Positions 20,657 to 64,000 of a stretch of DNA of 64,000 nt are shown in pieces. The stretch is from Dehalococcoidia bacterium (GTDB lineage: Bacteria > Chloroflexota > Dehalococcoidia > Lucifugimonadales > CATOSD01), in contig CBDBBO010000003.1 of assembly GCA_965203135.1 (NCBI GenBank), positions 266-64,265 of the forward strand. The letters are read 5' to 3'. Both the position numbers and the translations under genes were made by a program. A model generated the notes under the pieces. The model saw only the letters and a program-made list of their open reading frames with translations, was not told the DNA's origin and ran no database searches. Each line of letters starts with the position of its first letter. The first letter of the stretch is position 1.

Positions 20657-20793
20657 ATGCGCCCCCTTGAAGTCTCCGCACACCCGTGCTATCCTCCGTT
20701 CTGCAATGGACTGACCCTGCGACTGGCGACCTCGGACACCGGGATTGGGACCTCTCGTCGGACTGTTCTATTTCTGTCGATTTTGCGGCTTTA

Positions 20794-35385: not shown

Positions 35386-35460
35386 GCGCCGGCCGGGAAA
35401 TCTTTGAACCGCTTCTCTTGTCTCGTTTTCGCGGTGGGAAAGCGGGTTGGCGAGGGTCTG

Positions 35461-36117: not shown

Positions 36118-36291
36118 CGGGTCGTAAGCGTTCGCAATGGGCAACCGAGGTAGCGCGGATGTGCGGGGGTAGATGCAAGAATCTTCCTGGAAACGGTGTG
36201 AGTCCACTAGCCTCCCTTGGCCTGAGCAACCTTCTCTGAGTCAAGTTACAGTACGTGTGGGCAAGAAAGCTGCTGATTATTAGGTGGAGAA

Positions 36292-37029: not shown

Positions 37030-37125
37030 TGGGTACCGTATGAAAGCCTACCTTGACCTGAGCAACCTCCTCGGGGTTAAGCTACTGTGTGTAGGCGAGA
37101 AAGCTGCTGATTATCAGGTGGAGAA

Positions 37126-40661: not shown

Positions 40662-40702
40662 GTTTCTGCTTGGACCCAAACAGATAGTCTTGTGAGGTTG
40701 AA

Positions 40703-41809
40703 GTGCGGGCCGCCAGATTAGCGTTGTTCACTGGGTCGATGCGGGGAGGAGGCGCAGAGCGGGCCATGCTGACTCTGGCGACGGAGTTCGCCAAACGTGA
40801 GATATGCGTTGATCTCGTGCTGGTCAAGGCAGAGGGCGAATACCTGGACATGGTGCCCGACGGTGTGCGGGTGTTCGACCTCGACTCGCACAGGACATAC
40901 GCCGCAGTTCCTAAGTTTCTTCGCTACGTGCGGCGCGAACGCCCCCCCACGCTGCTTTCTACTCTGCTGACGACAGACCTGGCGGCGCTGTTCGGCAAAC
41001 TGGTCCACCGTAAGCGGCTACGCGTGGTGGTGCGACAGGCGACGATGTTCTCGGATATGTTCGACGTAGAGAGGTTTAAGACTCGCCAATTCATGCGGCT
41101 GGCACGTCTGTTGATGCCGGCGGCGGATGCCATAGTTGCCGTGTCGGAAGGCGCGGCGGCAGACCTTCGAGGGCAGGTTCCGCGGGCCGCGGACAAGATA
41201 ACGACAATCTACAATCCGGTGGTGTCCGCCGATATCGAGGAGCAGGCGGCGGAGGCGGTGGAGCATCCGTGGTTTGGAGACGGCGAGCCGGTGGTGCTGG
41301 CAGCGGGTCGGATGTCGGCTGAGAAGGACTACCCTACCCTGTTGCGGGCCTTTGCGGAGGTGGCGCGGTCGCGGGCGGCGCGGCTGGTGATTCTGGGGCA
41401 GGGTCCGGATCGGGAGAGCCTGCTGGAACTGGCGGCGCGGCTGGGGATAGAGGATCGGTTTGACCTGCCGGGGTTCGACGTCAATCCGTTCCGGTACATG
41501 GCGAGGGCGTCGGTGTTCGTGCTGTCGTCGAGGTACGAGGGGTTTCCGAACGTGCTGGCGCAGGCGATGGCGTGCGGGGCGCCGGTGGTGAGCACGGATT
41601 GCCGGAGCGGGCCGAGCGAGATGCTGGAGGGGGGCAAGTGGGGTCGGCTGGTGCCGGTGGGGGACTGGCGGGCGATGGCGCGGGCGATCGAGGCGACGCT
41701 GGATGATCCGATGCCGGCAGAGGCGCTGAGGGCGAGGGCGTCGGTGTATTCGGTGGAGGCGTCGGTGGAGCGGTACCTGGAGGTGTTGTTGGGGGGGAGC
41801 GCGTCCTAG
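40703..41809 (+). CDS. GT4-family (GT-B) glycosyltransferase
   Basis: GGAERAML N-terminus. C-terminal SRYEGFPNVLAQAMACGAPVVSTD (E-x7-E region). Confidence 0.85.
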   Translation: MRAARLALFTGSMRGGGAERAMLTLATEFAKREICVDLVLVKAEGEYLDMVPDGVRVFDLDSHRTYAAVPKFLRYVRRERPPTLLSTLLTTDLAALFGKLVHRKRLRVVVRQATMFSDMFDVERFKTRQFMRLARLLMPAADAIVAVSEGAAADLRGQVPRAADKITTIYNPVVSADIEEQAAEAVEHPWFGDGEPVVLAAGRMSAEKDYPTLLRAFAEVARSRAARLVILGQGPDRESLLELAARLGIEDRFDLPGFDVNPFRYMARASVFVLSSRYEGFPNVLAQAMACGAPVVSTDCRSGPSEMLEGGKWGRLVPVGDWRAMARAIEATLDDPMPAEALRARASVYSVEASVERYLEVLLGGSAS

Positions 41810-41815
41810 ATTATC

Positions 41816-41850
41816 CACGAAGGGCACGAAGGGGCACGAAGGGGGAAGGG
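41816..41850. repeat. Tandem cacgaagg(g) x3 microrepeat running into gggggaaggga
   Basis: cacgaagggcacgaaggggcacgaagggggaaggga, read directly. Confidence 0.7.
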
Positions 41851-41868
41851 ATAGGGCGGCGCGTGGCG

Positions 41869-42039
41869 TTACGTTCGCAGCAGGATTGTGACGATGACGG
41901 CGAGCTGGGAGAGGGCGAACGTGACGCCAAAGGCCAGCACGGCGCGTGTGATCCGGTCGAGGCGGGCTTCGAGTGCGTCGAAGCGGGCGTCGAGTGCGTC
42001 GAAACTGGCGGCGATGGTGGCGTCGTGGGGCGAGTGCAT
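41869..42039 (-). CDS. Tail-anchored coiled-coil miniprotein (56 aa)
   Basis: FDALDARFDALEARLDRI followed by the C-terminal TM AVLAFGVTFALSQLAVIVTILLRT. Paralogue of the gene 7 nt upstream. Confidence 0.5.
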   Translation of the reverse strand: MHSPHDATIAASFDALDARFDALEARLDRITRAVLAFGVTFALSQLAVIVTILLRT

Positions 42040-42046
42040 AGTGGCG

Positions 42047-42316
42047 TTATGATCGCAGCACGACTGTGACGATGAGCGCGACCTGGGAGAGCGCGAAGGT
42101 GACGCCCAGGCCCAGCATGGCGAGTATGAGCCGGTCGATACGCGCGTTGACCGCATCGATGCGGGCGCTGAGTGTGTCGATGCGGGCGTCGACTGCGTCG
42201 AAGCGCGTGTTGACTGCGGCAAGGCCTTGCCGGAGGTCTTCTCGCAGTCCGGCGATGGTGGCGGCGTGCTCGGCGGTGCGCCCTTCGAGCACGCCGAGGC
42301 GGGATTCGGTAGTCAT
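42047..42316 (-). CDS. Tail-anchored coiled-coil miniprotein (89 aa)
   Basis: Heptad-like RFDAVDA-RIDTLSA-RIDAVNA-RIDRL, then the TM LILAMLGLGVTFALSQVALIVTVVLRS. Confidence 0.55.
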   Translation of the reverse strand: MTTESRLGVLEGRTAEHAATIAGLREDLRQGLAAVNTRFDAVDARIDTLSARIDAVNARIDRLILAMLGLGVTFALSQVALIVTVVLRS

Positions 42317-42501
42317 GGGGCGGCCCCTTTCGCCGTCAGTATAGCAGAAACGGCGTGGGGAAAGGTCGGGGCGAGTGGAGTGCAGGGGCTTTAGATTCCT
42401 CGGCTCCGCTGCGCTGCGCTCGGAATGGCGGGGAAAGCGCCGGGGGAAGGGACAAGTGGTATGCTGTGGATGGCTAATGTCACGAAAGGAGGAACTGAGG
42501 C

Positions 42502-43902
42502 GTGACGCCTGGGGATAGGTTACGGGATCGAATCGAGCGGAGGGAGGCGGTGGTGTGCGTGGTGGGCCTGGGGTACGTGGGGCTGCCGCTGGCGGTGACG
42601 TTCGCGGAGGCGGGGTTTAGCGTGGTGGGGGTGGATACGGACGCGGACCGGGTGGCGGCGGTGAACGCGGGGCGGTCGCACGTGCCGGACGTGGCGTCGG
42701 AGGCGGTGGCGCGGCTGGCCCTCGACGAGTGCAGGCTGAGCGCGGCGACAGGGTACGACGCGGTGGGCGAGGCGGACGCGGTGCTGATTTGCGTGCCGAC
42801 GCCGCTGGGGAAGACGCGGGACCCGGACGTGTCGTACATCGTGGCGGCGGCGCGCGAGGTGGCGCCGCGGCTGCGGGAGGGCGCGCTGGTGGTGTTGGAG
42901 AGCACGACGTATCCGGGGACGACGGAGGAGCTGGTGCTGCCTCGGCTGGTGGAAGGGTACCCCCATGCAGACCCTTCGACAAGCTCAGGGCAGGCTCTTT
43001 CCACTGCGAGGGGGAAGGGACAAGTGGTTGGGCAGGACTTCTTTCTGGCGTTCTCGCCGGAGCGGGTGGACCCGGGGCGGGAGGACTGGACCATCTCCAA
43101 CACGCCGAAGGTCATCGGTGGGGTGACGGAGGCGTGCACCGAGGCGGCGTCGTGCCTGTACGGGGCGGCCATTGAGCGGGTCGTGGCGGTGTCCTCGTCG
43201 CGGGCGGCGGAGATGGTGAAGCTGCTGGAGAACACGTTTCGGGCGGCGAACATCGCGCTGGCGAACGAGATGGCGATCATGTGCGCCCACCTGGGTCTGG
43301 ACGTGTGGGAGGTGATCGACGCGGCGTCCAGCAAGCCGTTCGGGTTCATGCCGTTCTACCCGGGGCCGGGACTGGGCGGGCACTGCATACCGGTGGACCC
43401 GCACTACCTGGTGTGGAAGATGCGGACGCTTGGGTACACGGCGCGGTTCATCCAGCTCGCGGACGAGATCAACTCGGCGATGCCGCAGCACGTGGTGCTG
43501 GAGGTCACGCGGGCGCTGGGGAGCGAGTCCAAGCCGCTGAACGGGGCGCGGGTGCTGGTGCTGGGCGTGGCGTACAAGCCGGACGTGGCGGACACGCGGG
43601 AGTCGCCGGCGCTGGACCTGATACACCTGTTGAGGCAGCAGGGGGCGGTGGTCGAATACCACGACCCGCTGGCGCCGTCGATACGGGAGGCGGGGTTGGA
43701 GATGGCGAGCGTGGGTACGGAGGGCGAACCGACGCTGGGGGAGGCGCTGGCGGCGGCGGACTGCGTGGTGGTGGTGACGGACCACAGCAGCTACGACTGG
43801 GAGGACGTGGTGGCGCGGAGCCGGCTGGTGGTGGACACGCGCAACGCGGTGGCGCGGGCGGGGGTGGCGGGGGGATCGGGTGCGAGGGTGTTTAAGCTGT
43901 GA
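42502..43902 (+). CDS. UDP-N-acetyl-hexosamine (ManNAc/GlcNAc) 6-dehydrogenase-family enzyme carrying an in-frame repeat insertion
   Basis: VCVVGLGYVGLPLAVTFA. PGLGGHCIPVDP. VLGVAYKPDVADTRESPA. About 24 extra codons (YPHADPSTSSGQALSTARGKGQVV) lie between LVLPRLVEG and GQDFFLAFSPERVDPG. Confidence 0.8.
   Translation: MTPGDRLRDRIERREAVVCVVGLGYVGLPLAVTFAEAGFSVVGVDTDADRVAAVNAGRSHVPDVASEAVARLALDECRLSAATGYDAVGEADAVLICVPTPLGKTRDPDVSYIVAAAREVAPRLREGALVVLESTTYPGTTEELVLPRLVEGYPHADPSTSSGQALSTARGKGQVVGQDFFLAFSPERVDPGREDWTISNTPKVIGGVTEACTEAASCLYGAAIERVVAVSSSRAAEMVKLLENTFRAANIALANEMAIMCAHLGLDVWEVIDAASSKPFGFMPFYPGPGLGGHCIPVDPHYLVWKMRTLGYTARFIQLADEINSAMPQHVVLEVTRALGSESKPLNGARVLVLGVAYKPDVADTRESPALDLIHLLRQQGAVVEYHDPLAPSIREAGLEMASVGTEGEPTLGEALAAADCVVVVTDHSSYDWEDVVARSRLVVDTRNAVARAGVAGGSGARVFKL
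42958..43028 (+). repeat. Dispersed repeat copy inserted in frame within a coding sequence
   Basis: tacccccatgcagacccttcgacaagctcagggcaggctctttccactgcgagggggaagggacaagtgg. Compare 48094-48159. Its right end (gggggaagggacaagtggt) also occurs at 42442-42460. Confidence 0.75.
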
Positions 43903-43915
43903 GGGCGCGGGCTGC

Positions 43916-45787
43916 ATGTGTGGAGTAGCAGGGGTCGTATACCGGGACGGGCGGCCTGTGGACCGCGAGGTGGTGGCGCGGATGGGGGCGTGCCTGCGGC
44001 ACCGGGGACCGGACGACGACGGCGTGTACACGGGCGCCGGCGTGGGTCTGGCGCACACGCGGCTGAGCATCATCGACCTGAGCGAGAGCGGGCGTCAGCC
44101 GATGCGGTCGGAGGACGGCAGGTACGTCGTCTCGTACAACGGCGAGGTGTACAACTTCCGGGAGCTGCAGCACAGGCTTGAGAGCATGGGCCACAAGTTC
44201 CGTGGGCGGTCGGACACGGAGGTGGTGCTGCGGGCGTTCGTGGAGTGGGGCGAGTCGTCGTTCGCGATGCTGGAGGGGATGTTCGCGCTGGCGGTGTGGG
44301 ACGAGGCGGAGCGGCGGCTGCACCTGCACCTGGCGCGGGACCGGTTCGGCATCAAGCCGCTGTACTACCACACGGACGCGGATCGGGTGGTGTTCGGGTC
44401 GGAGATCAAGGCGCTGCTGGCGTCCGGCGACGTGGGTCGCGAGCTGGACTGGGCGGGTCTGCACGAGTACCTGTACTACAACACGGCGCTGGGGGAGCGG
44501 ACGATGTTCGCGGGGGTGCGCAAGCTGCCGCCGGGGCACGCGCTGACGGTGGATGAGGACGGCGCGCGGGTGTGGGAGTACGCGTCGGTGTTCGACGTGG
44601 AGGCGGTGGAGGACGACTACGCGACGGCGGTCGAGCGGGTGCGGGAGCTGATGGAGCGGGCGGTTAAGGCGCACCTGGTGAGCGACGTGCCGGTGGGAGT
44701 GTTCCTGAGCGGGGGCATCGACTCGTCGGCCATCACCGCGTTCGCGGCGAAGCACTATGGGGGCAGGCTTAAGACGTTCTCGGCGGGGTTCGATTTCGAC
44801 CGGGGCGTCAAGGAGCTGCCCAAGGCGCGGGCGGTGGCGGAGCACTTTGGCACGGACCACCAGGAGCTGCACGTGTCCGGCGGCGACGTGGCGGGGGTGA
44901 TCGAGCGGCTGGTGCGATGCCACGACCAGCCGTTCGGGGACGCGGCGAACATCGCGCTGTACCTGCTGTGCGAGCATCTCGGCGGCGGCAACAAGGTGGT
45001 GCTCCAGGGCGATGGGGGCGACGAGGTGTTCGCCGGGTACAAACCACACTCCCTCATGGCGATGGAGCGGTGGGCCATGGCCTTCGTCTGGGCGACTTCG
45101 TGGGCGCTGCCGATTGTGCCCGGTTGGGTGCCTTACTTCCACACGGTGCAGCGCCTGAACACGCCGGACCGCTCCGTCCGATACGCCAAGGTTATTGCGG
45201 ATGGCAGGGGCGGCGAGAAACCAAGCCGCGTCTTTGTGCCGGGGGCGCAGGCGATGCTGGAGGTCAGCGACCCGTTCGCGCGCTACCGCGAGATGTACCA
45301 CAGGTTCTCGAAGCTTGATAGCGCGCAGCGAACGGTATACACGGACTCCGCCATCATACTGCCGGACCTGTTCTTCGAGAAGGTGGACAAGGCGACGATG
45401 GCGCACGGCGTCGAGGTGCGGGTGCCGCTCGTGGACACGCAGTTGGCGGCGTACGTGATGGGGTTGCCGTCGAAGTACAAGATACGGTGGGGGCACAAGA
45501 AGCGCATCCTGCGGCGGGCGCTGCGGGGCGTGGTGCCGGACGACATACTGGATATGCCGAAGGTGGGGTTCGGGGTGCCCGCGGGATACTGGCTGAGGAC
45601 CACGCTGGCGGGGTACATGAAGGACGTGCTGCTGGATGATGCGCGGCGCAGCGCGTCGCTGTTCGACGTATCAGTACTGCGGACGCTCATCGACGACCAC
45701 GTGGAGGGCCGGCGCAACTACGGTACGTTCCTGTACAGGCTGCTCAACCTGGCGCTGTGGTACGACGAGTACGGCGTGGCGGCGTGA
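43916..45787 (+). CDS. Glutamine-hydrolysing asparagine-synthase-family amidotransferase (AsnB/WbpS-like)
   Basis: MCGVAG N-terminal nucleophile Cys. SFNGEIYN-like YNGEVYNF. PP-loop FLSGGIDSS. Confidence 0.85.
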   Translation: MCGVAGVVYRDGRPVDREVVARMGACLRHRGPDDDGVYTGAGVGLAHTRLSIIDLSESGRQPMRSEDGRYVVSYNGEVYNFRELQHRLESMGHKFRGRSDTEVVLRAFVEWGESSFAMLEGMFALAVWDEAERRLHLHLARDRFGIKPLYYHTDADRVVFGSEIKALLASGDVGRELDWAGLHEYLYYNTALGERTMFAGVRKLPPGHALTVDEDGARVWEYASVFDVEAVEDDYATAVERVRELMERAVKAHLVSDVPVGVFLSGGIDSSAITAFAAKHYGGRLKTFSAGFDFDRGVKELPKARAVAEHFGTDHQELHVSGGDVAGVIERLVRCHDQPFGDAANIALYLLCEHLGGGNKVVLQGDGGDEVFAGYKPHSLMAMERWAMAFVWATSWALPIVPGWVPYFHTVQRLNTPDRSVRYAKVIADGRGGEKPSRVFVPGAQAMLEVSDPFARYREMYHRFSKLDSAQRTVYTDSAIILPDLFFEKVDKATMAHGVEVRVPLVDTQLAAYVMGLPSKYKIRWGHKKRILRRALRGVVPDDILDMPKVGFGVPAGYWLRTTLAGYMKDVLLDDARRSASLFDVSVLRTLIDDHVEGRRNYGTFLYRLLNLALWYDEYGVAA

Positions 45788-46920
45788 CGGACGGGGGTGA
45801 CTCGCGCGGCCACGCGATGTTCGTCATCAGCGGGCTGGAGCGCGGCGGAGCGGAGCGGCAGCTCGTAATCGTGGCCAACGGGCTGGCGGCGCGAGGGTGG
45901 AGGGTCACGGTGCTGTCCTACCTGACCTTCTCGGAGACGTCGCTGCGGACGGAGGTGGAGGAATCCAGAGTGCGGCTGCTGAGTCTCGACGCCACCGACG
46001 GCGCGGGCAAGCTTGTCGGGCTAGCCAGGGCAGTTGCGGTTGTGCGGAGGGAGAGGCCGGACGTGCTGGTCGGGTTCATGTTCCACGGCATCATGACGGC
46101 GCGGATGGCCGGACGGCTTTGTGGCGTGTCAGCGGTGGTGTCCGCAGTCCGCAACGAGGTCCACGGGCGGATGAGGGAACGGGTGCTGGGCGTCACGGGG
46201 CGGCTGACGGATGCGGTGACGGTCATGTCAAAGAGCCTAGCGTCGCGGCTCGCCGAGAGGAGGGTGGCCGACCGCGCGCGGCTGGTCGTCATCCCGAACG
46301 CGGTGGAGGTCGCGCGGTTCGAGGCGGGGGGCTGCCGGGTCGAGACGCGGCGATCGCTGGGGGTCGGCGAGGGTGAGTTCGTGTGGCTGGCCGTGGGTCG
46401 GCTGGCTCCCCAGAAGGACTACGCCGGGCTGCTGCGGGCGTTCGGGACGCTTGGGGAGCGGCGGGCGCGGCTGTACGTCGCGGGGGACGGGCGGCTGCGT
46501 GGAGAGTTGGCACGGCTGGTGGAGGAGCTGGGGCTGGCGGAGCGAGTCCGGCTGCTGGGATTGCGGAATGACATGCCTGAGCTGTACGGGGCGTGCGACG
46601 CGCTGGTGCTGTCGTCGGCGTGGGAGGGAATGCCGAACGTGGTGCTGGAAGCGATGGCGTCCGGGAGGCCGGTGGTGGCGACGGCGGTGGGCGCCGTGCC
46701 CGAGATGGCGGCGGACGGCGAGACGGGGTTCGTCGTGCCGGCGGGGGACCACGCCGCTCTTGCGGGCGCGATGGCGCGGGTGATGGGCCTGGCGCCGGAT
46801 GAGCGGCGGGCGATGGGCGAGGCGGGACGCCGGGTCGTGCGGGAGCGGCATTCGGTGGAGAGCGTGATCGACAGGTGGGAGGAGCTGTTCGGGCGACTGC
46901 TGGAGGGCAAGGCGCGGTGA
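45784..46920 (+). CDS. GT4-family glycosyltransferase
   Basis: GTGA overlap with the asnB-like stop (alternative ATG at 45817). GGAERQLV. SSAWEGMPNVVLEAMASGRPVVAT. Confidence 0.85.
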   Translation: MTDGGDSRGHAMFVISGLERGGAERQLVIVANGLAARGWRVTVLSYLTFSETSLRTEVEESRVRLLSLDATDGAGKLVGLARAVAVVRRERPDVLVGFMFHGIMTARMAGRLCGVSAVVSAVRNEVHGRMRERVLGVTGRLTDAVTVMSKSLASRLAERRVADRARLVVIPNAVEVARFEAGGCRVETRRSLGVGEGEFVWLAVGRLAPQKDYAGLLRAFGTLGERRARLYVAGDGRLRGELARLVEELGLAERVRLLGLRNDMPELYGACDALVLSSAWEGMPNVVLEAMASGRPVVATAVGAVPEMAADGETGFVVPAGDHAALAGAMARVMGLAPDERRAMGEAGRRVVRERHSVESVIDRWEELFGRLLEGKAR

Positions 46921-48107
46921 CGGAACTTCCGCGGTCGGTTGCCATCACCACCAACTCGGGCGAGCGGTTGTACCGCTTCCGCGCGCCGATAGTGCGGGCG
47001 CTGGTCGAGCGGGGCGTGCGGGTGTACGCGGTGGCGCCGGCCGGGGAGTCCGCGGGCGAAATCGAGGCGTTGGGCGCGGAGTTCATGCCGTGGCGGCTGA
47101 GCCGTGGCGGGGTCAACCCTTTCGCCGAGGCGGCGTCGGTGGCGTCGCTGGTGGGCATCTACCGGCGGCTGAGGCCGGACGTGGCGCAGCACTTCACGAT
47201 CAAGCCGAACGTGTACGGGGCGATTGCGGGCAGGCTGGCGGGCGTGCCGGTCGTGGTGGGCGGCGTGACCGGGCTGGGGTACGCGTTCGCGGCTGGCGGG
47301 CGCCGGCGCGGAGTGATACGGTCGGTTGCGGGGATGCTGTACCGGCTGGCGGCGGCGCTGGGCAACGGCGTGACGTTTCAGACGGCGCACGACGCGGACG
47401 TGCTCTTTGGCGCGTCCAGCAGACTCAGGCGGAAGGCGTTGGTCGTCCCCGGCGGGTCCGGCGTAGACCTTGCCGTGTTCAGCCGGGACGCGGTGAGCGC
47501 GGAGGCGCGGCGGGAGATGAGGGTCGCGCTGGGGATTCCGACGGGAGCGCCGGTCGTGACGATGGCGTCGCGGCTGCTGTACGACAAGGGGATCGCGGAG
47601 TTCGTGGAGGCGGCGCGAGCCGTGAGGGCGCGCAGGCCGGACGCGGTGTTCGTGCTGGCGGGGGAGGGGGACCCGGGCAATCGGGAGTCGGTTACGGAGC
47701 GGGACCTGGCGGCCTGGCGGGAGTCGGGTGACGTGATATTGCCGGGCCACGTGGGCGACGTGCCGCGCCTGCTGGCCATCTCGGACGTGGTCGCCCTGCC
47801 CTCCTACCACGAGGGCGTGCCGCGGTCGCTGGTCGAGGCAGCGGCGATGGGCAGGGCCATCGTGGCCACGGACATACCGGGCGCGGCGGAGGTGGTCGAC
47901 AATGGTGTGAACGGGACGCTGGTGCCGCCGCGGGACGCCGGCGCGCTGGCGGGCGCCATCGGGGCGCTGCTGGACGATGCGGAGACGCGGGACAGGTACG
48001 GCGACGCTGGGCGGCGGAAGGCCGAGCGGGAGTTCGACGAGCGGGCGGTTGCGGCACGGTACGTAGCGGAGTACGCGCGGTTGTGGGCGTCGTCACCCCC
48101 ATCCTAA
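46917..48107 (+). CDS. GT4-family glycosyltransferase
   Basis: GTGA overlap with the preceding stop. PSYHEGVPRSLVEAAAMGRAIVATDIPG. The last codons and the stop are supplied by a dispersed repeat. Confidence 0.8.
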   Translation: MTELPRSVAITTNSGERLYRFRAPIVRALVERGVRVYAVAPAGESAGEIEALGAEFMPWRLSRGGVNPFAEAASVASLVGIYRRLRPDVAQHFTIKPNVYGAIAGRLAGVPVVVGGVTGLGYAFAAGGRRRGVIRSVAGMLYRLAAALGNGVTFQTAHDADVLFGASSRLRRKALVVPGGSGVDLAVFSRDAVSAEARREMRVALGIPTGAPVVTMASRLLYDKGIAEFVEAARAVRARRPDAVFVLAGEGDPGNRESVTERDLAAWRESGDVILPGHVGDVPRLLAISDVVALPSYHEGVPRSLVEAAAMGRAIVATDIPGAAEVVDNGVNGTLVPPRDAGALAGAIGALLDDAETRDRYGDAGRRKAEREFDERAVAARYVAEYARLWASSPPS

Positions 48108-55648: not shown

Positions 55649-56560
55649 TCAGTCGTGGGCGATTTCCTGGAGAAAGTCTCGCACTAGGGCGGCACACCTT
55701 TCCGGCTGCTCGAGCTGAAGCAGGTGGGTCGTCTCGGGGAGGAAGTCGTAGTTGACGGTGAAGACGTCGCGAAGGTCGAGCGTGGGTAGGTACGAGTACG
55801 GCAGGGTGGGGTCGGCGCCGATGACCTTGGTCGGGCACAGCATCGCGTCAAAGTCCACCAGCACGGCGTATGCGCCGGCCCACTCGATCATCTGCGCTTC
55901 ATAGTCGCGGGGGCAGCGAAGCTCGTAGCCGTCGCCGCTCGCGGCGTCGCGGAGCGTGGCCTCCGCGAACAGATCACGCACGCCTGGCTTGACGCGTTGG
56001 AAGTTAGGAATGAACCCCAGGAGCTCGGCGAACGACTCCCTGGTCGGGAATAGGGGCGTGCGAGAGCGGGTGAGCGCGGCGAGGCGCGCGGCGACCTCCT
56101 CGAACTCCTGGAGGCTGCGGCCGGCCTTGCACAGCGGAGGGTCGAAGAGGATGCGGGCGGTGAAGTCGGCCCCCAGATTGGCGGACAGGAGCGTGGTGAG
56201 CGCGGAGATGGAGTGGAACACTCCCACCCTGGGTTTGTCGCCGAAGTGGGCGTCGATAGACTCCATGATCACGTCGTGGTCGTGCACCAGCGTGGGCAGA
56301 TTGTGGTTCTGCATGGAGCTGGCGGCGTTCCAGCCGTGGTTTCGCAGGTCGTAGGCGATGATGTCGTAGTCGTCCGCGAGAAGCGACCAGAATGGATAGT
56401 AGACGTCGATCGAAAGCCCGTTTCCATGACTCATCACGAGCCGTGGCCCGGACGGGTTGCCGTGGCGGCGCAGGGTGATGACAGTCTCTTCGTCCACCCG
56501 GACGTCGTGGGTAGAGAGCGGTTCGGGCAGCTCCCAGGCGCGCTCCGGTGCGGACGTCAC
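55649..56560 (-). CDS. Alpha/beta-fold hydrolase
   Basis: LVMSHGNG oxyanion region and VFHSISA nucleophile elbow-like segment. ATGA-coupled to the PPTase gene upstream. Confidence 0.6.
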   Translation of the reverse strand: MTSAPERAWELPEPLSTHDVRVDEETVITLRRHGNPSGPRLVMSHGNGLSIDVYYPFWSLLADDYDIIAYDLRNHGWNAASSMQNHNLPTLVHDHDVIMESIDAHFGDKPRVGVFHSISALTTLLSANLGADFTARILFDPPLCKAGRSLQEFEEVAARLAALTRSRTPLFPTRESFAELLGFIPNFQRVKPGVRDLFAEATLRDAASGDGYELRCPRDYEAQMIEWAGAYAVLVDFDAMLCPTKVIGADPTLPYSYLPTLDLRDVFTVNYDFLPETTHLLQLEQPERCAALVRDFLQEIAHD

Positions 56561-57366
56561 GCGCGCTCGCCTTTCGCGCGGGCCAATGCCCGGTCGATTT
56601 CGGCGTCGGTGAGCGCGCTGAAGCGCGGCCCAGGCTCATGGGCGACAGCGGCGGCGAACTCATCGCAGCCCAGATCGTCCACGCGCCAATTCATCGTGGG
56701 AAGCTGCGGAAAGCGGTACGTCGCGGACGACGCGCCCAGGCGCATGGCCGCCGGCGCCTCGAAATCGGCCGGGTCGAATGATATGCCCGTTCCCAACGCC
56801 TTGATGAGCGCCTCCTTGATGGTCCAGAGCTTGAAGAACAGGTGGATCCTGCGGGGACCGTTCGCCCGGGTGAGAGCGCGCTGTTCGTTGGCTCCGAAGG
56901 CGGCGTCGATCAGGCGGTCGAAGTCGCGCCGCTCGGTGCGCTCCTCGACGTCTACGCCGAGCCTGCCGTCCGGTGCGAGGGCGATCAGGCCGTGGCTGCC
57001 GCCGTGGCTCACGTTGAAGCTGACGGGCACGTGCTCGCCGTCGACGAGCGTGAAGGGCTTTTCGTGAATCGCCTGGCCGAAGGCGAGTTGTTCATTGCGG
57101 CATCCCAGGTGGTCGCAGAGGATGGCGCGGAGGGCCGCTCGACACAGCGCGAACCTTCGGCGCGCTCCCAGGTGAACGAACTTTCGCCATCGCTTTCGCT
57201 CGCAGGCGTCGAGCATGGCGAAGGCGGACGCTTCATGACCAGGATGAGGGGCGAGGTCGACGTGGACCACGGCAGCGGTCCCGAATCGACCGTGTGGCTT
57301 CCACCAGCAGTCCGTGGCACGGACTGACATGGTTCTCCCTGGAACTGATGAGGTTGTCATAGGCAC
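56557..57366 (-). CDS. Sfp-type 4'-phosphopantetheinyl transferase
   Basis: FNVSHGGSHGLIAL, GVDVEE, WTIKEALIKALG. Alternative start at 57330. Confidence 0.85.
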   Translation of the reverse strand: MPMTTSSVPGRTMSVRATDCWWKPHGRFGTAAVVHVDLAPHPGHEASAFAMLDACERKRWRKFVHLGARRRFALCRAALRAILCDHLGCRNEQLAFGQAIHEKPFTLVDGEHVPVSFNVSHGGSHGLIALAPDGRLGVDVEERTERRDFDRLIDAAFGANEQRALTRANGPRRIHLFFKLWTIKEALIKALGTGISFDPADFEAPAAMRLGASSATYRFPQLPTMNWRVDDLGCDEFAAAVAHEPGPRFSALTDAEIDRALARAKGERA

Positions 57367-57473
57367 ACAAAGTTAGCAGAACCGGTACATGCCGGTCAAC
57401 GTTGCTGAGGCATGGACCTTGTCACAGCCTCTATCGGGAGACTGAGTGACGCGGCCCTTGTACAAGACTCGGT

Positions 57474-57502
57474 TTGACCCACCGCCAGCCACTTGCTACG
57501 AT
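57474..57502 (+). promoter_or_regulatory. Sigma-70-like promoter candidate for the PKS gene
   Basis: TTGACC, 17-nt spacer, TACGAT, about 60 nt upstream of GTG 57562. A perfect 10-bp palindrome CTTGTACAAG at 57458-57467 abuts the -35. Confidence 0.35.
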
Positions 57503-57561
57503 GAAATTCATATACTTTCAACGTCCGCAATTGTGGACTCGACCTTCCAGAGGAGGCCATC

Positions 57562-60500
57562 GTGGCGCTGGACGATATCGCTGGATCATCAAGTGATATA
57601 GCATCTCATTCGGGGGTTGGGAGCCCTTCCGGGCCGGCGGAGCCTATCGCCATCGTTGGCATGGCCTGCCGCTTCCCGGGCGCGAACAGTCTCGACGAAT
57701 TCTGGCAGCTGCTGGAGTCAGGTGGAAATGCTATCACCGAAGGCGTGCCGGGTTCCGGTGTTGGCCGGATCGGGCAGTTCTACCCGGAATCCGCAAATCA
57801 GTTTCCGGCCTGCCGGTATGCGGCCCTAGTCGACGATATCGACATGTTTGACGCGGAGTTTTTCAGGATTTCGCCTGTAGAGGCACAGCTTCTGGACCCC
57901 CAGCAGCGCATGGTACTGGAAACCTGCTGGAAGGCCCTCGAGGACTCGCTGGTGGACCCCGAGCAGCTCAAGGGAAGCCGCACCGGGATATACCTGGGCA
58001 TAAGCAACAATGACTACCGCGGGGTGAGCCTGGCGGCCACCCAGCAGACCGGCGCGGCCGAGAGCCTGTACACCGTTGCCGGCACGTCATTCAATACAGC
58101 CGCCGGCCGGGTTGCGTTCGCGCTCGGCCTGCAAGGACCGGCCATGGCGGTGGACACCGCCTGCTCGTCCTCACTGTTCGCACTACACCAGGCGATGGCA
58201 TCGCTTCAACGGGATGAGGCTGACCTGATACTGGTCGGGGGCGTCCAGGCCATCTTCCTGGGTCAGCTGACCCAGTTGAGGGCGAGAGCCGGGATGCTGT
58301 CTCCTGACGGCCAGTGCAAGGCCTTCGACGCTTCTGCCAACGGTTTCGTTCGCGGCGAGGGCTGCGGCATGGTCGTGCTGAAGCGGCTCGCCGACGCCGA
58401 GGCCGACGGCGACCGGATCTGGGGCGTGGTGCTGGGTTCGGCCGTGAACCAGGACGGCACCAGCGCCGGACTCACGGTGCCGAGCGGCGTCGCCCAGGAG
58501 AGGGTGATCGAGGAGGCCCTGCTTCAAGCCGGCGTCGCTCCCCAGGATGTGGACTTTTTGGAGGCCCACGGCACGGGCACCGAAGTGGGCGACCCCATCG
58601 AGTTGAACGCCGCGGCGGAAGTCTACGGCAGGGGGAGAGATCCCGGCAATCCCTTGCTGGTGGGTTCGGTGAAGACCAATGTGGGGCACCTGGAGCCGGC
58701 GGCGGGAGTGGCCGGCCTGATGAAGGTGCTTCTGTCCATGCAGCGGGGTATCGTCCCCAGGCACCTGCACTTCAACAATCCGAACCCGCGCCTTGATTGG
58801 GACAGTCTTCCCGTCAGGATCCCGACAGAGAACGTCCAGTGGCCGCGGGTTTCAGGCAGGCATCCGAGGGCCGGGATCAGCTCATACGGCTGGTCCGGGA
58901 CCAATGTCCACGTCGTGGTCGAGGGCTACCCGAGTCCTGCGGAGGCTTCCGCGGACAAGGGTGGAATGCCGCAACCCGCCGGAGCATATCGCACGGTCCC
59001 AGTTTCGCTGCCGGATTCGCCGGACGGCCCGCTTCCCGTAGTGGAAGGGGCCAGGCATGCCCGCATTCTGCCGCTTTCGGGAAAGATGGATGACGCCCTG
59101 AGAGACTCGGCGAGGTCGTACCTGTCGTGGCTGGACACGCAGAGCGGGGCCGCGTTCGCGGACGGCAGCGCCGTCGCCCCCGGCTTCTCGGACATGGCCT
59201 GGACGGCAGGAGTCGCGCGCAGCCACTTTGAGCGGCGCGCGGCTGTCGCCTTCAAGGACGCAGAGTCGCTGCGAGCCGGTCTCCGAGAGGTTGTCGAGGG
59301 CACACGCAAACCTTCCGAGGATGCCGCGACCAAGGTGGCGTTCGTCTACACGGGACAGGGAAGCCAATGGTACGGCATGGGCAGGACACTCTACGAGCGC
59401 GAGCCGGTGGTGAAGGACGTGCTGGACAGGTGCGAGCGCGTCATGCTGGAGGAGCGTGGGGCGTCGCTGCTGGACGTGATGTTCGGGGCCGGGACCGCCG
59501 CCGGCGATCTGTACGACACCACGTGGTCGCAGCCCGCCGTGTACGCGCTGGAATGCGCCCTCACGGCGCTGTGGCGGAGCATAGGCGTCGAGCCGAGCGT
59601 TGCGATCGGACACAGCCTGGGCGAGTTCGCTGCCGCGCAGGCGGCGGGCGTGTTCAGCCTGGAGGAGGGCCTGCGATTCGTGGCCAGACGGGGCGAGCTG
59701 CTGTCGTCCGTTCCTGTGAAGGGCACAATGGCGGCGATCTTCGCGTCGCCGGAGGCAGTGGCCGCCGCCGTCGATGAGCACAACGCGGCGGCGGCCACTG
59801 CAGGCGTGAGCGTCGCGGTCGACAACGGCATACACCAGGTGATCAGCGGCACGGAAGCGGCGGTCAAAGCGGTGTCCGACCGCTTCGAGGCCGACGAAAT
59901 CATGGTGAGACCGCTGAGAAACCAGGCGTTCCACAGCCCGCTGCTCGAGCCCGCGCTGGACGACCTGGAGCAGGCGTTCAACCGGGTCGAAGTCTCGCCG
60001 CCTTCACTGTCGCTGGTGAGCAACGTCACAGGCAAGGTGGTAGCACAGGACGAGTCCCTGGACGGCAGGTACTGGCGTGGTCACGCGCGCAATGCGGTAC
60101 AGTTCCGAAAGGGCATAGGCGAGATGGCCGATTTGGGCGTCGATCTGGTGGTTGAGATCGGCCCGCACGCCGTGCTCGGCCCGCTGGTGTCGCTGGTGTG
60201 GCAAAGCGTGGCTGAAGGCGCGAATGATCCCGTCGTGTTGCAGAGCATGCTGCGTCCGTCCTCGGGCGCGTTCGACGCCGAGGTGGACGACGGATTCGTC
60301 GATGCGGTCGCGGCCGCATATAACGCCGGCCTTTCGCTGGACTTTGCCGGCCTGTTCGCCGGGGAAGAGCGGCGGCGCATTTCCGTGCCCGGCTATCCCT
60401 TCCAGCGGCGCCGGTACTGGGTGGAGGGCACTCAGAGGCGCACCTCCGGCGACGCGCACCCGCTGCTGGGCGAGAGGCACGAGTCCGCGCGTGGCGAGGT

Positions 60501-63500
60501 GATGTTCGAGACGGAGATGTTCCCTTCCGAACCGTCCTGGCTGGAGGACCACCAGGTATTCGGCCGGGTGGTGATGCCCGGAGCGGTCTACGGAGCGATG
60601 GCCGCCACCGTACCATTCACCGAAGGAGCGGGCGCGTCTGTGGTCGAGGACCTCCAGCTTCATGTCCCGCTGGTCTACCCGGAGTATTCGCCAGATGGCG
60701 ACACGGAGGAGCCGGGACGCCGGATGCAGTTGGTCGTCGACGGCTCGACGGACTCGACCGCACGGACTTTCGAGGTCTTCAGCAAGGGTGAAGACGACGA
60801 ATGGCTACTCCACGCGGAGGGCCGGCTATCTCCTGATTCAGGGCAGTGGGGCATAGTTGAAACGGCGGACCTGGATGCGCTGAAGGCCGGTCTCACTCTG
60901 CAGGACCTGTCCGACTACTACCGGGCCAAAGCGGTGAGCGGAATCGACTTCGGGCCAGCGTTCAGGACCCTGGAGGCCCTATGGGGTGAAGGAAGCGAGG
61001 CGGTCGGCGAAATCGCGCTTCAGGACACAAGAGGGTCCATCTACGAGGCCATACACCCGCTGTTGCTGGACGGATGTTTCCAGGTGTTGTCGGCCGCCCG
61101 AAACCTGTCCGGTATCGGGGGCGAGGCCACCTATCTCCCGTTCGGCTGGGAGCGCCTCCGGCTGAATGGCCCCCTGCCCGACCGGCTGGTGTGCCACGCT
61201 CGGATGAGGGACGGCGTTCAGGCGCCGGACGATGATGAAGCGACCGCGCATACGCCGGAGACCCTGATCGGGGATTTGCGGCTGTACTCGCTTGAGGGCG
61301 ACGTGCTCGGCGAATTGACGGGTTTCGCCCTGAAGCGGGCCACGCGAGCCGCGTTCCTGTCGTCTACCGAGGGACTCGAGGACCTGTTGTACGAGGTCGT
61401 CTGGCGCGAGCGGCCGCTGTTGGGCGGCTTGCGGTCGGCAGATCCCCTCGTCGGTCCATCCGCAGTCGCGGCGAGCACGGGCGCCTTCGCCGAGTATCTG
61501 TCCGAGGAAGGCGTCGAGATCGACGACCGCGCGACCCTGCTTGGCGATATGGAGCGGCTGTCCCGGTCCTATGCCCTGGCGGCTCTGAATCGCTTGGGAT
61601 GGCAGCGCGATGCGGGAAAGGTCGTGCATCCGGACGCTCTCCGGGAAGGGCTGCGGGTCCTGCCCGAACACGCCCGTCTCCTGGAGAGGATGCTCCGGCT
61701 GCTGGCCGACGCGGGCGTACTGGAGCGCGGTCCGAGCGGCGGCTACGGGATCGTTGTAGGAACGGAAGACCGGCTTCCGGACGAGGCGCTGGTCGACCCG
61801 GAAGCCTTCGCGGATCGTATGGTCGAATTGCATCCTCATGGCTCCAGCGAGCTGGGCCTCCTCAGGAGGAGCGGTGGAGCCCTGGCGGAAGTGCTGCGGG
61901 GCGAGGTGGACCCACTATCAATACTATTCCCGAGAGAGGGCCCCGGCGCGGCGGACTTCTACTTCACCGCACCGGCTTCGAGGGCCTCGAACAGGATGCT
62001 GGCGGACGCGGTGGCCGCGACCGTAGCCGACTGGCCGGAGGGACGCCGGCTGCGCATTCTGGAGGTGGGCGCGGGCACCGGCTCCGGAACATCCGTGGTG
62101 CTGCCGGAACTGCCGGACGGCGGGTTCGACTACGTGTTCACCGACATCTCGGCGGGCTTCTTTGCCGAGGCCGAGATCCGTTTCAGCGATTCGGGAGCGC
62201 CCATCGAGTACCGGCCGCTGGATATCGAGCGAGACCCTGCCGACCAGGGTTTCGATCTCCATTCCTATGATCTGGTCATAGCCGTCAACGTGCTGCACGC
62301 CACGCGGGACCTGGGAGAGACCCTGACCAACTGTAAGAGTCTGCTGGCCCCGTCCGGCCAGCTGCTCGCCGTGGAGAGCCTGCGGGGGCGCGGGTGGCAG
62401 GACATGACCTTTGGGCAACTGGACGGATGGTGGCGCTACTCCGACGCCTACAGGCCGAACCACGCCGTCGCCTCGCCCGAAGTCTGGCTCCAGGCCCTGG
62501 CCGACACCGGATTCGTAGACTCGGCGGTACTGGGCGGCGAGAGCGTGGGCGACATGGGCCCCGTGGGTTCCGGCGTCATTCTGGGCCGGGGACCCGAGCA
62601 TATCACCCTGGCGGAAGGCGTCTGGGTGCTGGCCGCCCACAATGAGGCTGCGGCGGTTGATCTGGCGGGAGGCTTCGCGGCGCAAAATCAGAAGGTGGTC
62701 GTCGCGAGCAATAGCCGGAGCGATAGCTCGCCTCCCAGTGGCGCAGGTGTTTTACATGCCGCGGTCGATGCGGAACGGCGGGAGTCGTGGAGCCAACTGC
62801 TGGAGTCCCTGCCGGACGATGTCCCGTTGCACGGAGTAGTCCACTGCTCTTCGCTGGAGGGCCTGGGGACAGAGGCGACGACGGAGCAGTTGGCGCAGGA
62901 AGTGAGGAGGGTCGGTTCGAGCGCCCTTGCATTGACGCAGGCCCTGCAGGATTCGGGTGTGGTGCCGGTCAAGGGGCTGTCGTTCATCACCAGGGGAGCC
63001 CAGGCGCTGGAACGGGACTACATGCGACGCAGCGTCGAGGAACTGCCCGGCGCCACCCTCTGGGGGTTCGGCAAGGCGCTGGCGCGGGAGGTTGGCCATC
63101 TGCAACCCAGAATGATCGATCTGGACCCGGATGCGTCGCCGAACATCGACAGCCTGGTCGACGAGCTGATGTTCCCCGATTCCGAAACCCATATCGCCTA
63201 CCGGTCCGGCGACCGTTTGGCCTCACGTCTCGTGAGGAGGAGTGACGCCAGGCCTCGACTGGACTTGCCGGATGAACCGGACTGGCGGCTCGTCTCCACC
63301 GCGGGTGAGGGTCTGCAGGGACTGCACACGGTGCCCGCTACGCCGCAACCGCTCCAGAGCGGCGAGGTTCGAGTGCGGGTGGAAGCGGCAGGGCTCAACT
63401 TCTCCGACGTCCTCATAGGCATGGGGGCCGTCGAGATGGACCCGATGTTGGGCGACGAGTTCTGCGGCCGCATTGCGGAAGTCGCCGATGACGTTTCCGG

Positions 63501-64000
63501 GTTCCGAGTGGGCGATCGCGTGGTGGGGCTGGGAATCGGCACTTTCAGGCCGGACGCGGTAACGCGGGCGGAGATGGTGGCGCCGGCATCGCCGGATACC
63601 CCGGCGGCTGCTCTGGCTACCGTACCCACTTCTTTCGTTTCCGCGGAGTTGGCCTTCCAGATGTCCGGGTTGGAAAAGGGAGATCGCGTACTTGTTCATA
63701 CCGCGTCAGGCGGTGTGGGGCTGGCGGCCACCCAACTGGTTGAAGCCGCGGGAGCGGAAGTGTTCGCGACGGCCAGCGTAGCCAAGCATGACTACCTGCG
63801 GTCGCTGGGCATATCCCACGTCTACGACAGCCGGAGCACCGTTTTCGGAAGCGAGATTCTGGAGGCCACGGGAGGAGAGGGCGTCGACGTGGTGTTGAAC
63901 AGCCTCACGGGGCCGGGGTTCATCGAAGCCAGCCTCTCGTGCCTGGCCGAGGGCGGCCGCTTTGTGGAGATGGGCAGGCGCGACATCTGGAGCGCCGACG
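57562..64000 (+). CDS. Type I polyketide synthase, 3' end outside window: KS-AT-DH-cMT-psiKR-ER...
   Basis: AGGAGG lies 5 nt before the GTG. Frame 1 was checked open at all sampled points to nt 64000. KS ~57.64-58.9 kb (IAIVGMACRFPG, DTACSSSL, EAHGTGT, KTNVGHLE). AT ~59.3-60.2 kb (GHSLGEFAAA, QAFHS). DH ~60.45-61.3 kb (HPLLG; HQVFGRVVMP). cMT ~61.9-62.5 kb (LRILEVGAGTGSGT). psiKR ~62.6-63.2 kb. ER from ~63.3 kb (GEVRVRVEAAGLNFSD; LVHTASGGVGLAA). Not in the ORF track because it has no stop in the window. Confidence 0.9.
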   Translation, partial: MALDDIAGSSSDIASHSGVGSPSGPAEPIAIVGMACRFPGANSLDEFWQLLESGGNAITEGVPGSGVGRIGQFYPESANQFPACRYAALVDDIDMFDAEFFRISPVEAQLLDPQQRMVLETCWKALEDSLVDPEQLKGSRTGIYLGISNNDYRGVSLAATQQTGAAESLYTVAGTSFNTAAGRVAFALGLQGPAMAVDTACSSSLFALHQAMASLQRDEADLILVGGVQAIFLGQLTQLRARAGMLSPDGQCKAFDASANGFVRGEGCGMVVLKRLADAEADGDRIWGVVLGSAVNQDGTSAGLTVPSGVAQERVIEEALLQAGVAPQDVDFLEAHGTGTEVGDPIELNAAAEVYGRGRDPGNPLLVGSVKTNVGHLEPAAGVAGLMKVLLSMQRGIVPRHLHFNNPNPRLDWDSLPVRIPTENVQWPRVSGRHPRAGISSYGWSGTNVHVVVEGYPSPAEASADKGGMPQPAGAYRTVPVSLPDSPDGPLPVVEGARHARILPLSGKMDDALRDSARSYLSWLDTQSGAAFADGSAVAPGFSDMAWTAGVARSHFERRAAVAFKDAESLRAGLREVVEGTRKPSEDAATKVAFVYTGQGSQWYGMGRTLYEREPVVKDVLDRCERVMLEERGASLLDVMFGAGTAAGDLYDTTWSQPAVYALECALTALWRSIGVEPSVAIGHSLGEFAAAQAAGVFSLEEGLRFVARRGELLSSVPVKGTMAAIFASPEAVAAAVDEHNAAAATAGVSVAVDNGIHQVISGTEAAVKAVSDRFEADEIMVRPLRNQAFHSPLLEPALDDLEQAFNRVEVSPPSLSLVSNVTGKVVAQDESLDGRYWRGHARNAVQFRKGIGEMADLGVDLVVEIGPHAVLGPLVSLVWQSVAEGANDPVVLQSMLRPSSGAFDAEVDDGFVDAVAAAYNAGLSLDFAGLFAGEERRRISVPGYPFQRRRYWVEGTQRRTSGDAHPLLGERHESARGEVMFETEMFPSEPSWLEDHQVFGRVVMPGAVYGAMAATVPFTEGAGASVVEDLQLHVPLVYPEYSPDGDTEEPGRRMQLVVDGSTDSTARTFEVFSKGEDDEWLLHAEGRLSPDSGQWGIVETADLDALKAGLTLQDLSDYYRAKAVSGIDFGPAFRTLEALWGEGSEAVGEIALQDTRGSIYEAIHPLLLDGCFQVLSAARNLSGIGGEATYLPFGWERLRLNGPLPDRLVCHARMRDGVQAPDDDEATAHTPETLIGDLRLYSLEGDVLGELTGFALKRATRAAFLSSTEGLEDLLYEVVWRERPLLGGLRSADPLVGPSAVAASTGAFAEYLSEEGVEIDDRATLLGDMERLSRSYALAALNRLGWQRDAGKVVHPDALREGLRVLPEHARLLERMLRLLADAGVLERGPSGGYGIVVGTEDRLPDEALVDPEAFADRMVELHPHGSSELGLLRRSGGALAEVLRGEVDPLSILFPREGPGAADFYFTAPASRASNRMLADAVAATVADWPEGRRLRILEVGAGTGSGTSVVLPELPDGGFDYVFTDISAGFFAEAEIRFSDSGAPIEYRPLDIERDPADQGFDLHSYDLVIAVNVLHATRDLGETLTNCKSLLAPSGQLLAVESLRGRGWQDMTFGQLDGWWRYSDAYRPNHAVASPEVWLQALADTGFVDSAVLGGESVGDMGPVGSGVILGRGPEHITLAEGVWVLAAHNEAAAVDLAGGFAAQNQKVVVASNSRSDSSPPSGAGVLHAAVDAERRESWSQLLESLPDDVPLHGVVHCSSLEGLGTEATTEQLAQEVRRVGSSALALTQALQDSGVVPVKGLSFITRGAQALERDYMRRSVEELPGATLWGFGKALAREVGHLQPRMIDLDPDASPNIDSLVDELMFPDSETHIAYRSGDRLASRLVRRSDARPRLDLPDEPDWRLVSTAGEGLQGLHTVPATPQPLQSGEVRVRVEAAGLNFSDVLIGMGAVEMDPMLGDEFCGRIAEVADDVSGFRVGDRVVGLGIGTFRPDAVTRAEMVAPASPDTPAAALATVPTSFVSAELAFQMSGLEKGDRVLVHTASGGVGLAATQLVEAAGAEVFATASVAKHDYLRSLGISHVYDSRSTVFGSEILEATGGEGVDVVLNSLTGPGFIEASLSCLAEGGRFVEMGRRDIWSAD

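Follow-up and report, generated by a model that had tools for sequence, protein, structure and literature searches.

At the 3' end of a 64,000-nucleotide stretch of contig CBDBBO010000003.1 from a Dehalococcoidia bacterium (GCA_965203135.1; the whole stretch is called the window below) lies a type I polyketide synthase (PKS) locus that we read, with a probability of about 0.8, as a lipid cluster of the 'sup' (sponge symbiont ubiquitous PKS) type, in which the first PKS module and a second ketosynthase (KS2) would together produce a mid-chain methyl-branched fatty acid. As judged from sequence, the window very likely contains a supD-like hydrolase gene, a supC-like phosphopantetheinyl transferase (PPTase) gene and the first 2146 codons of supA. 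Assignment to the Sup family is very likely, though not formally closed, because the motifs of the first ketosynthase (KS1), the architecture of the protein, its neighbouring genes and the phyletic spread of its relatives fit the published descriptions of sup.

The Sup cluster supA-E (Fieseler et al. 2007, Applied and Environmental Microbiology; Hochmuth et al. 2010, ChemBioChem; both as cited in PMC4245539, PMC3908369 and PMC9426513) encodes 'unusual, small monomodular' PKSs that dominate the ketosynthase (KS) amplicons obtained from high-microbial-abundance (HMA) sponges with DPQQ/HGTGT primers (PMC4245539). In such amplicons sup genes account for >99 % of sequences, with 123 variants in one specimen, and the proposed products are mid-chain-branched fatty acids (PMC4245539). 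SupE of clone pAPKS18 is a permease (PMC3908369). SUP clusters occur in metagenome-assembled genomes (MAGs) of Chloroflexota, Spirochaetota, Proteobacteria and Acidobacteriota, 'independent of bacterial taxonomy' (PMC9426513), and the type I PKS clusters of SAR202 sponge symbionts are homologous to the PKS described earlier from sponge symbionts (PMC6306507). The protein described here consists of one complete module plus a terminal KS, and its KS1 carries both DPQQR and HGTGT. SupA reportedly has the order KS, acyltransferase (AT), dehydratase (DH), methyltransferase, enoylreductase (ER), ketoreductase (KR), acyl carrier protein (ACP), KS and AT. The window protein agrees with this order up to KS2, and most of its relatives add a C-terminal AT-like domain that lacks the nucleophile serine.

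The locus is not an orphan: its PKS is one of a very large family whose members share its neighbourhood, and that family fits the sup cluster (PMC4245539, PMC3908369, PMC9426513). This comes close to the outcome that the prediction had named as its own refutation, namely placement in an already characterised lipid PKS clade, but the sup clade is described rather than biochemically characterised. Since 2007, PKSs of the Sup type have been recognised as the commonest PKS genes of sponge microbiomes, and surveys of MAGs have already assigned them to several phyla, Chloroflexota among them; the locus is a member of this known, biochemically uncharacterised family with minor structural variations. 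As lipid markers of bacteria associated with sponges, mid-chain methyl-branched fatty acids are in wide use.

Reading frame, domains and conserved neighbourhood

Frame 1 begins at GTG 57562 and is uninterrupted for the rest of the window; its translation over 57562-63999 (+) runs through 2146 codons and meets no stop. As the original prediction had recognised, the frame was left out of the list of open reading frames (ORFs) because it runs off the window end. A Shine-Dalgarno sequence, GAGGAGG (57550-57556), lies 5 nt ahead of the start codon. A database protein of 3211 amino acids (aa), P0001, is 100 % identical across all 2146 residues of the fragment, begins at the same start codon and supplies the part of the synthase that lies beyond the window. 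In-window domains were called with Pfam, the ER being cut at the window end, and the features of the locus are as follows.

55649..56560, minus strand: alpha/beta-hydrolase, 303 aa, SupD-like (PF12697, E=1e-14)
56557..57330, minus strand: Sfp/HetI-type 4'-phosphopantetheinyl transferase, SupC-like (PF01648 and PF22624)
57331..57561, no strand: divergent intergenic region with a sigma70-like match and the PKS Shine-Dalgarno sequence
57562..64000, plus strand: 5' two-thirds of the SupA-type PKS (aa 1-2146 of 3211), with KS1, AT1, DH, C-methyltransferase (cMT), KR structural sub-domain (psiKR) and ER; KR, ACP, KS2 and linker lie outside the window
57640..58773, plus strand: KS1 (aa 27-404; PF00109/PF02801)
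59341..60216, plus strand: AT1 (aa 594-885; PF00698), with GHSLGE and NQAFHS
60457..61353, plus strand: DH (aa 966-1264; PF21089/PF14765), with HxxxGxxxxP and DxxxQ present and conserved in the family
62032..62514, plus strand: C-methyltransferase (aa 1491-1651; PF08242 and related families), a class I methyltransferase
62659..63261, plus strand: KR structural sub-domain (approx. aa 1700-1900, boundaries approximate)
63358..64000, plus strand: ER (aa 1933-2146), of the medium-chain dehydrogenase/reductase (MDR) type, PF08240/PF00107 to aa 2140; complete in P0001

The full architecture read from P0001 is KS1-AT1-DH-cMT-psiKR-ER-KR-ACP1-KS2 followed by a KS-AT-type linker. The in-window domain order is the one originally predicted, the synthase has no loading didomain (KS1 begins at aa 27), and the catalytic KR (aa 2235-2411) and ACP1 (aa 2517-2582, LGMDSLMAVE) lie just past position 64000, where they had been expected. 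The protein does not end there as a single KS-to-ACP module, as had been supposed: a second KS occupies aa 2616-2984, the KS-AT-type linker follows, and the stop comes after the conserved motif ...YPFQRRRHW, at aa 3211. KS2 keeps its Cys/His/His residues (DLACASS, EAHATGS, KSNIGHTE) and also reads MDPQQRM, with the HGTGT motif replaced by EAHATGS in this allele; it is 58 % identical to KS1 and has a mean identity of 71 % across the family. Because KS2 follows the ACP and is itself followed by a stop, this is not a plain iterative synthase running from KS to ACP, nor does it visibly head a long assembly line.

Motif conservation was scored across 77 aligned sequences of the PKS family. Catalytic motifs of KS1, AT1, DH, cMT, ER, ACP1 and KS2 are all retained in the family, and those of the present protein are intact except in the KR, where a histidine stands at the tyrosine position. 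A pseudogene reading was rejected. KS1 has its Cys/His/His residues (DTACSSS, EAHGTGT, KTNVGHLE) and both primer motifs, DPQQR (within LDPQQRM) and HGTGT. AT1 is the sole AT with a nucleophile serine, which is present in 77/77 sequences. The cMT carries the S-adenosylmethionine (SAM) motif I LEVGAGTGSGT together with NVLHAT (75/77) and LLAVES, with a mean domain identity of 75 % across the family, and thus has the integrity that the original prediction had asked to see checked. The stretch from cMT to ER aligns with the psiKR-ER-KR region of the solved modules 3slk and 8g7w; no Pfam match was obtained for the KR structural sub-domain in the window fragment, and PF22953 is listed for this region in many relatives. 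The NADPH motif of the ER, HTASGGVGLAA, is conserved in the family.

AT1 motifs in the family fall into two types, xAFHS-like (QAFHS here, at window ~59920-59940) and SPAYHS/SPGYHS (55/77), neither of which is the canonical HAFH or YASH. The exact NQAFHS motif is found in 9/77 sequences, the other eight being from Binatia, Thermodesulfobacteriota, Dadabacteria and one Dehalococcoidia.

The AT-like domain that follows KS2 in relatives (e.g. aa ~3180-3340 of the L001 protein) has Gly at the nucleophile position in 60 of the 77 sequences, Asp in 3 and Ser in 1, and is absent from 13. The neighbouring residues are very variable, and the domain was deleted in several separate lineages, including the window allele. 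By these signs the C-terminal AT2 is a dead, decaying relic that the window allele has lost.

The PKS is transcribed divergently from the PPTase and alpha/beta-hydrolase genes, both on the minus strand as originally described and overlapping each other by 4 bp. In the region between them, a sigma70-like TTGACC-17-TACGAT at 57474-57502 (+) is a consensus match only, with 1 found versus 0.4 expected. The PPTase ORF is open up to 57366 and probably starts at ATG 57330 (257 aa); its match to the NCBIfam HetI model is below the cut-off, and the syntenic locus L082 has an orthologue, called at 257 aa, with 88.8 % identity. The hydrolase has 2472 database homologues, the best 120 at 64-89 % identity, and its residues H115-S116, D249 and H278 are invariant in 37 sequences. 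An AlphaFold 2 model built with 37 close homologues is poor (pLDDT 57.8), and its best Foldseek fold in the Protein Data Bank (PDB), the CurM thioesterase 3qit at a template modelling (TM) score of 0.45, is a weak hint. A profile search of PDB sequences gave marginal matches only. The enzyme is a putative acyl-ACP thioesterase or release enzyme.

Relatives of the synthase are numerous. The window fragment matches >120 database clusters at 56-74 % identity over its full length, with the same Pfam content and ~3200-3500 aa, and a scan of one genome per GTDB species yielded at least 358 relatives, mostly in MAGs. They are found in Dehalococcoidia/SAR202 and other Chloroflexota, Acidimicrobiia (Actinomycetota), Binatia, Dadabacteria, Latescibacterota, Nitrospirales, Thermodesulfobacteriota and Gammaproteobacteria, and include the SB06xx_bin and APA_bin MAG series, that is, symbionts of Ircinia ramosa and Aplysina aerophoba. 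We fetched 79 relative loci and, in neighbour counts covering 81 loci with 10 kb flanks, compared six-frame ORFs with the window PPTase and hydrolase and with the ACP and permease of locus L002. The following genes were found beside the PKS.

Hydrolase homologue: 68/81 loci
Free-standing ACP of ~80 aa: 68/81 loci
PPTase homologue: 60/81 loci
Xan_ur-type permease: 47/81 loci
ACP, PPTase and hydrolase together: 59/81 loci

Most often the PKS is followed by ACP, PPTase and hydrolase in that order, beyond which the permease lies on the opposite strand, and the free-standing ACPs retain the serine motif G-[VIL]-S-S-x-D. Two loci, L063 and L079, have the layout of the window: hydrolase and PPTase are divergent upstream, an ACP stands directly 3' of the PKS, and the permease follows. 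Because these two loci share its layout, an ACP is expected just past the window end here as well. Upstream of the hydrolase, at 48.6-55.5 kb, the window encodes a Mo-oxidoreductase, an acyl-CoA dehydrogenase, a solute-binding protein, an MpaB-like protein, a nitroreductase and a carbonic anhydrase. These genes are of unrelated housekeeping type, and are not counted in the cluster because they recur only in the syntenic L082 and are absent from the annotated neighbourhoods of L001 and L002.

The histidine-type ketoreductase and the predicted pathway

The KR reads GQGN-H-AAAN in P0001. HMMER alignments place its His2381, which is encoded ~7.1 kb from the PKS start and outside the window, opposite the catalytic Tyr of the KRs of mycocerosic acid synthase (MAS), AmphB and SpnB. 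The substitution is a property of the whole family: His stands at the Tyr position (GQxN-H-AAAN) in 77/77 sequences, Lys and Asn are likewise kept in 77/77 and Ser in 76/77, and among 135 large database relatives 121 match the KR motif with His and 0 with Tyr. KR and ACP1 are the most conserved domains of the synthase, with a mean identity of 77 %, and the Rossmann motif of the KR is intact. Such conservation implies that the KR is under selection, and since it is maintained while the unused AT2 of the same family decays, we infer that the His-type KR is catalytically active.

The variant also occurs outside the family, in cMT-ER-KR(H)-ACP modules of multimodular PKSs. We searched the KR against 1.84 billion cluster representatives and, from the 150 best matches, obtained 251 KR motifs with a scorable module, in which cMT domains were called with hidden Markov models (HMMs). 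A His at the Tyr position is accompanied by a cMT in the same module in 11 cases and stands without one in 3; for Tyr the corresponding counts are 1 and 236. The association has a Fisher p of ~9e-16, a value that overstates independence because the sampled sequences were chosen for their similarity and are related to one another. No description of the His-type variant was found in a limited literature search.

The domain and motif content supports the originally predicted reduced, methyl-branched chain and suggests the following pathway. The PPTase would prime ACP1 and the free-standing ACP, KS1 would take a short or medium fatty-acyl starter, and AT1 would load malonate. After condensation, the cMT would methylate C-2, and KR, DH and ER would reduce the intermediate fully to a 2-methyl-acyl-ACP1. 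The methyl branch would come from SAM, because the AT motifs (GHSLGE with QAFHS here, SPAYHS in most relatives) are not of the methylmalonyl YASH type, in agreement with the original prediction. KS2 would then condense the 2-methyl-acyl chain with a malonyl group on the free-standing ACP, loaded by AT1 or FabD, and the resulting branched beta-ketoacyl-ACP would either be elongated by the type II fatty acid synthase (FAS) of the cell or be released by the hydrolase. Elongation by type II FAS would place the methyl group in mid-chain, and the predicted product is thus a mid-chain methyl-branched fatty acid, as the literature proposes for Sup enzymes.

Several points weigh against this reading. 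In the pathway, the choice of starter, the single use of module 1 and the hand-off to type II FAS are steps that we infer, and full reduction is deduced from the conservation of a KR that lacks the canonical Tyr. The very likely assignment to Sup was made from the published descriptions of the family, and no match named 'Sup' appeared in the protein searches with the PKS fragment, the hydrolase and the KS amplicon region or in the cluster look-up; the amplicon-region search returned mostly short unnamed fragments. SupB, SupC and SupD are reportedly an ACP, a PPTase and a hydrolase, respectively. No Sup product is demonstrated in the literature searched. The window's own downstream ACP and permease are placed there by synteny with L063 and L079, and 8/81 loci have no accessory gene within 10 kb.

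Of the alternatives, the one that survives best, although we consider it unlikely, is a stand-alone iterative highly reducing PKS resembling fungal highly reducing PKSs (HR-PKSs) or MAS, whose module would cycle many times and build a saturated chain with multiple methyl groups for release by the hydrolase. The single complete module, the lack of a loading module and the one active AT would suit such an enzyme, the closest solved structure is that of the iterative MAS, and the sequence is compatible with iteration of module 1. On the other hand, the protein continues past the ACP, and a purely iterative scheme leaves both the conserved, intact KS2 and the free-standing ACP without a role. In addition, all NCBIfam models of MAS/Pks2 type score far below their cut-offs, and the published proposal for the family is a mid-chain mono-methyl fatty acid (PMC4245539).

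It is less probable still, and in our view quite improbable, that the His-type KR is dead. The module would then yield a 2-methyl-3-ketoacyl chain, which after KS2 would become a diketo/triketide that either closes into a pyrone or yields a methyl ketone on hydrolysis and decarboxylation. The position of His2381 at the catalytic Tyr, the absence of reductive domains from module 2 and the weak match of the hydrolase to the decarboxylating CurM thioesterase would agree with such a product. Against it stands the KR itself, which together with ACP1 is the most conserved domain, keeps Lys, Asn and His invariant and has an intact Rossmann motif. The motifs of DH and ER are conserved too, whereas the unused AT2 is decayed or deleted. 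The occurrence of the same His-type KR in cMT-containing, fully reducing modules of multimodular PKSs likewise argues for an active variant. Reductase-incompetent KRs lack Asn, or Ser and Tyr together (PMC7327777), and this pattern is absent from the present KR.

There is hardly any chance that an ordinary multimodular cis-AT assembly line opens with this ORF and continues past the window, the C-terminal KS starting a split module: the end in a KS and KS-AT-type linker is that of split modules and KS2 is most similar to the assembly-line module CurL, but the flanks of the 81 loci gave small ACPs and no further PKS genes were noticed there in the homologue scan and gene tables, which did not include a systematic, dedicated search for PKS domains, and in L063 and L079 the PKS is followed by an ACP and then a permease.

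Relation to known systems and mosaic ancestry of module 1

The Sup cluster remains the closest counterpart of the locus. Both have a small, essentially mono-modular reducing type I PKS with a DPQQR/HGTGT KS, small accessory genes and a predicted methyl-branched fatty acyl product. Relatives of the present PKS are abundant, very diverse and spread over several phyla, some of them in MAG series documented as sponge symbionts, and a permease adjoins the PKS in many of their loci. The present locus differs in that the degenerate C-terminal AT is deleted (as in ~15/77 relatives), hydrolase and PPTase are divergent upstream rather than downstream, and module 1 is a recombinant allele. This compact allele is complete, keeps its motifs intact, lacks the dead AT and adjoins a PPTase and a hydrolase of its own, so that it lends itself to reconstitution.

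MAS (PDB 9d2y/9d2z, 5bp1) is the best-scoring solved relative of KS1-AT1-DH, at 873 bits, and, as predicted for the present synthase, makes a methyl-branched lipid from a fatty-acyl starter with a single fully reducing module. Its methyl branches derive from methylmalonyl-CoA. Unlike the present protein, MAS has no cMT, ends after the ACP and iterates, whereas here a cMT, a malonyl-type AT motif, KS2 and a free-standing ACP are found. Orthology with MAS/Pks2-type enzymes was therefore rejected on account of the cMT, the QAFHS/GHSLGE AT and the extra KS2, with the NCBIfam Pks2 model reaching 812 bits versus a cut-off of 2400.

KS2 and its linker are most similar, among solved structures, to curacin CurL (PDB 4mz0; 694 bits), and the weak top fold match of the hydrolase model, CurM-TE, belongs to the same pathway. 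Curacin differs in being made by a long collinear assembly line, and the sulfotransferase of that system is not present here. The original comparison with fungal HR-PKSs and animal FAS rather than with bacterial modules did not hold: MAS, CurL and DEBS modules outscore LovB (567 bits) and FAS (~490 bits), a KS stands at the end of the protein, and bacterial multimodular PKSs also have modules with the order cMT-ER-KR.

The Swf cluster resembles the locus in having a single-module reducing PKS/FAS widespread in sponge symbionts. SwfA has the order KS-AT-DH-ER-KR-ACP without a cMT or second KS, lacks DPQQR and reads HATGT, and is accompanied by SwfB (reductase and sulfotransferase) and the radical SAM protein SwfC (PMC3908369). 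We rejected this assignment because cMT and KS2 are present, KS1 reads DPQQR/HGTGT and the neighbours are ACP, PPTase and hydrolase; no SwfB/SwfC-type partners were noticed in the available neighbour annotations.

The history of module 1 differs from that of the chromosome around it. At 86-89 % DNA identity, L082 (GCA_964386475.1) shares synteny with the window over 46.3-57.9 kb, and its carbonic anhydrase (97.6 %), nitroreductase (95.3 %) and hydrolase (90.3 %) are, like its PPTase, close to the window proteins. The L082 PKS, in contrast, is only ~55 % identical to the window PKS and 97.5 % identical to that of L063. In a sliding-window comparison of P0001 with the PKSs of its relatives, residues 2701-3000 (KS2) are 95-98 % identical to L063, whereas residues 101-2600 are 37-78 % identical to L063 and mostly 57-92 % identical to another Dehalococcoidia clade (L041, L001, L003, L004, L030). 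A conserved slot and a KS2 like that of L063/L082, combined with a divergent module 1, indicate that module 1 was replaced by recombination, and it clearly reads as a recombinant allele in a conserved chromosomal slot. Within it, the AT1 segment (residues 601-900; window ~59.3-60.3 kb) is only 47-70 % identical to the L041 clade and has its best matches in L047/L076; judged by these identities, it is of other ancestry than its flanks and resembles alleles from other phyla. Replacement of module 1 is in keeping with reports that sup genes are extremely diverse and independent of taxon.

A wider proposal is offered tentatively, as we think it somewhat more apt to fail than to hold. The Tyr-to-His exchange may define a distinct, active, cMT-co-evolving class of KRs for 2-methyl-3-ketoacyl substrates, common to Sup and to cMT-containing multimodular modules and outside A/B/C typing, and Sup genes may diversify by module- or domain-scale recombination between alleles of different phyla in the sponge microbiome. 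The cMT-linked His-type KR could be of interest to PKS enzymology, and the allele replacement in module 1 to the study of gene flow in the holobiont.

Other features of the window

No tRNA genes were found in the window. An ORF run at 124-6434 (+) and 7653-10241 (+) encodes proteins with fibronectin type III (fn3) and cadherin-like domains, among them an 862-aa protein with a thrombospondin type 3 repeat. Such 'eukaryotic-like' proteins belong to types reported to be enriched in sponge symbionts. A 675-aa ORF at 23468-25495 (+) encodes a fusion protein in which GPP34 (Golgi phosphoprotein 3) is the N-terminal domain and a cytochrome P450 follows. Enrichment in sponge symbionts, or association with them, is reported for fn3/cadherin-like and GPP34 proteins (PMC11706023), whose presence in the window is consistent with a sponge-symbiont genome. 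Beside the GPP34-P450 ORF lie genes for an MMPL transporter (25511-27976, minus strand) and a KshA-like Rieske oxygenase (28048-29328, minus strand), neighbours that suggest a lipid- or steroid-related group.

An rve-family integrase ORF at 19375-20658 (-), next to which the GC content is lower (0.59 at 20-22 kb), probably marks an insertion element. From ~32 kb onward the GC skew is strongly positive, and the GC content falls to 0.55-0.57 at 36-40 kb. A polysaccharide-type block at 32555-48107 comprises genes for two UDP-glucose/GDP-mannose dehydrogenases, two tandem TylF-like methyltransferases, a DUF362 protein, three GT4 glycosyltransferases and an asparagine synthase. The 872-aa ORF at 32555-35173 (-) has UDP-glucose dehydrogenase domains only at residues 445-855, preceded by a 440-aa N-terminal extension without a Pfam match, and may be an over-long call in GC-rich DNA.

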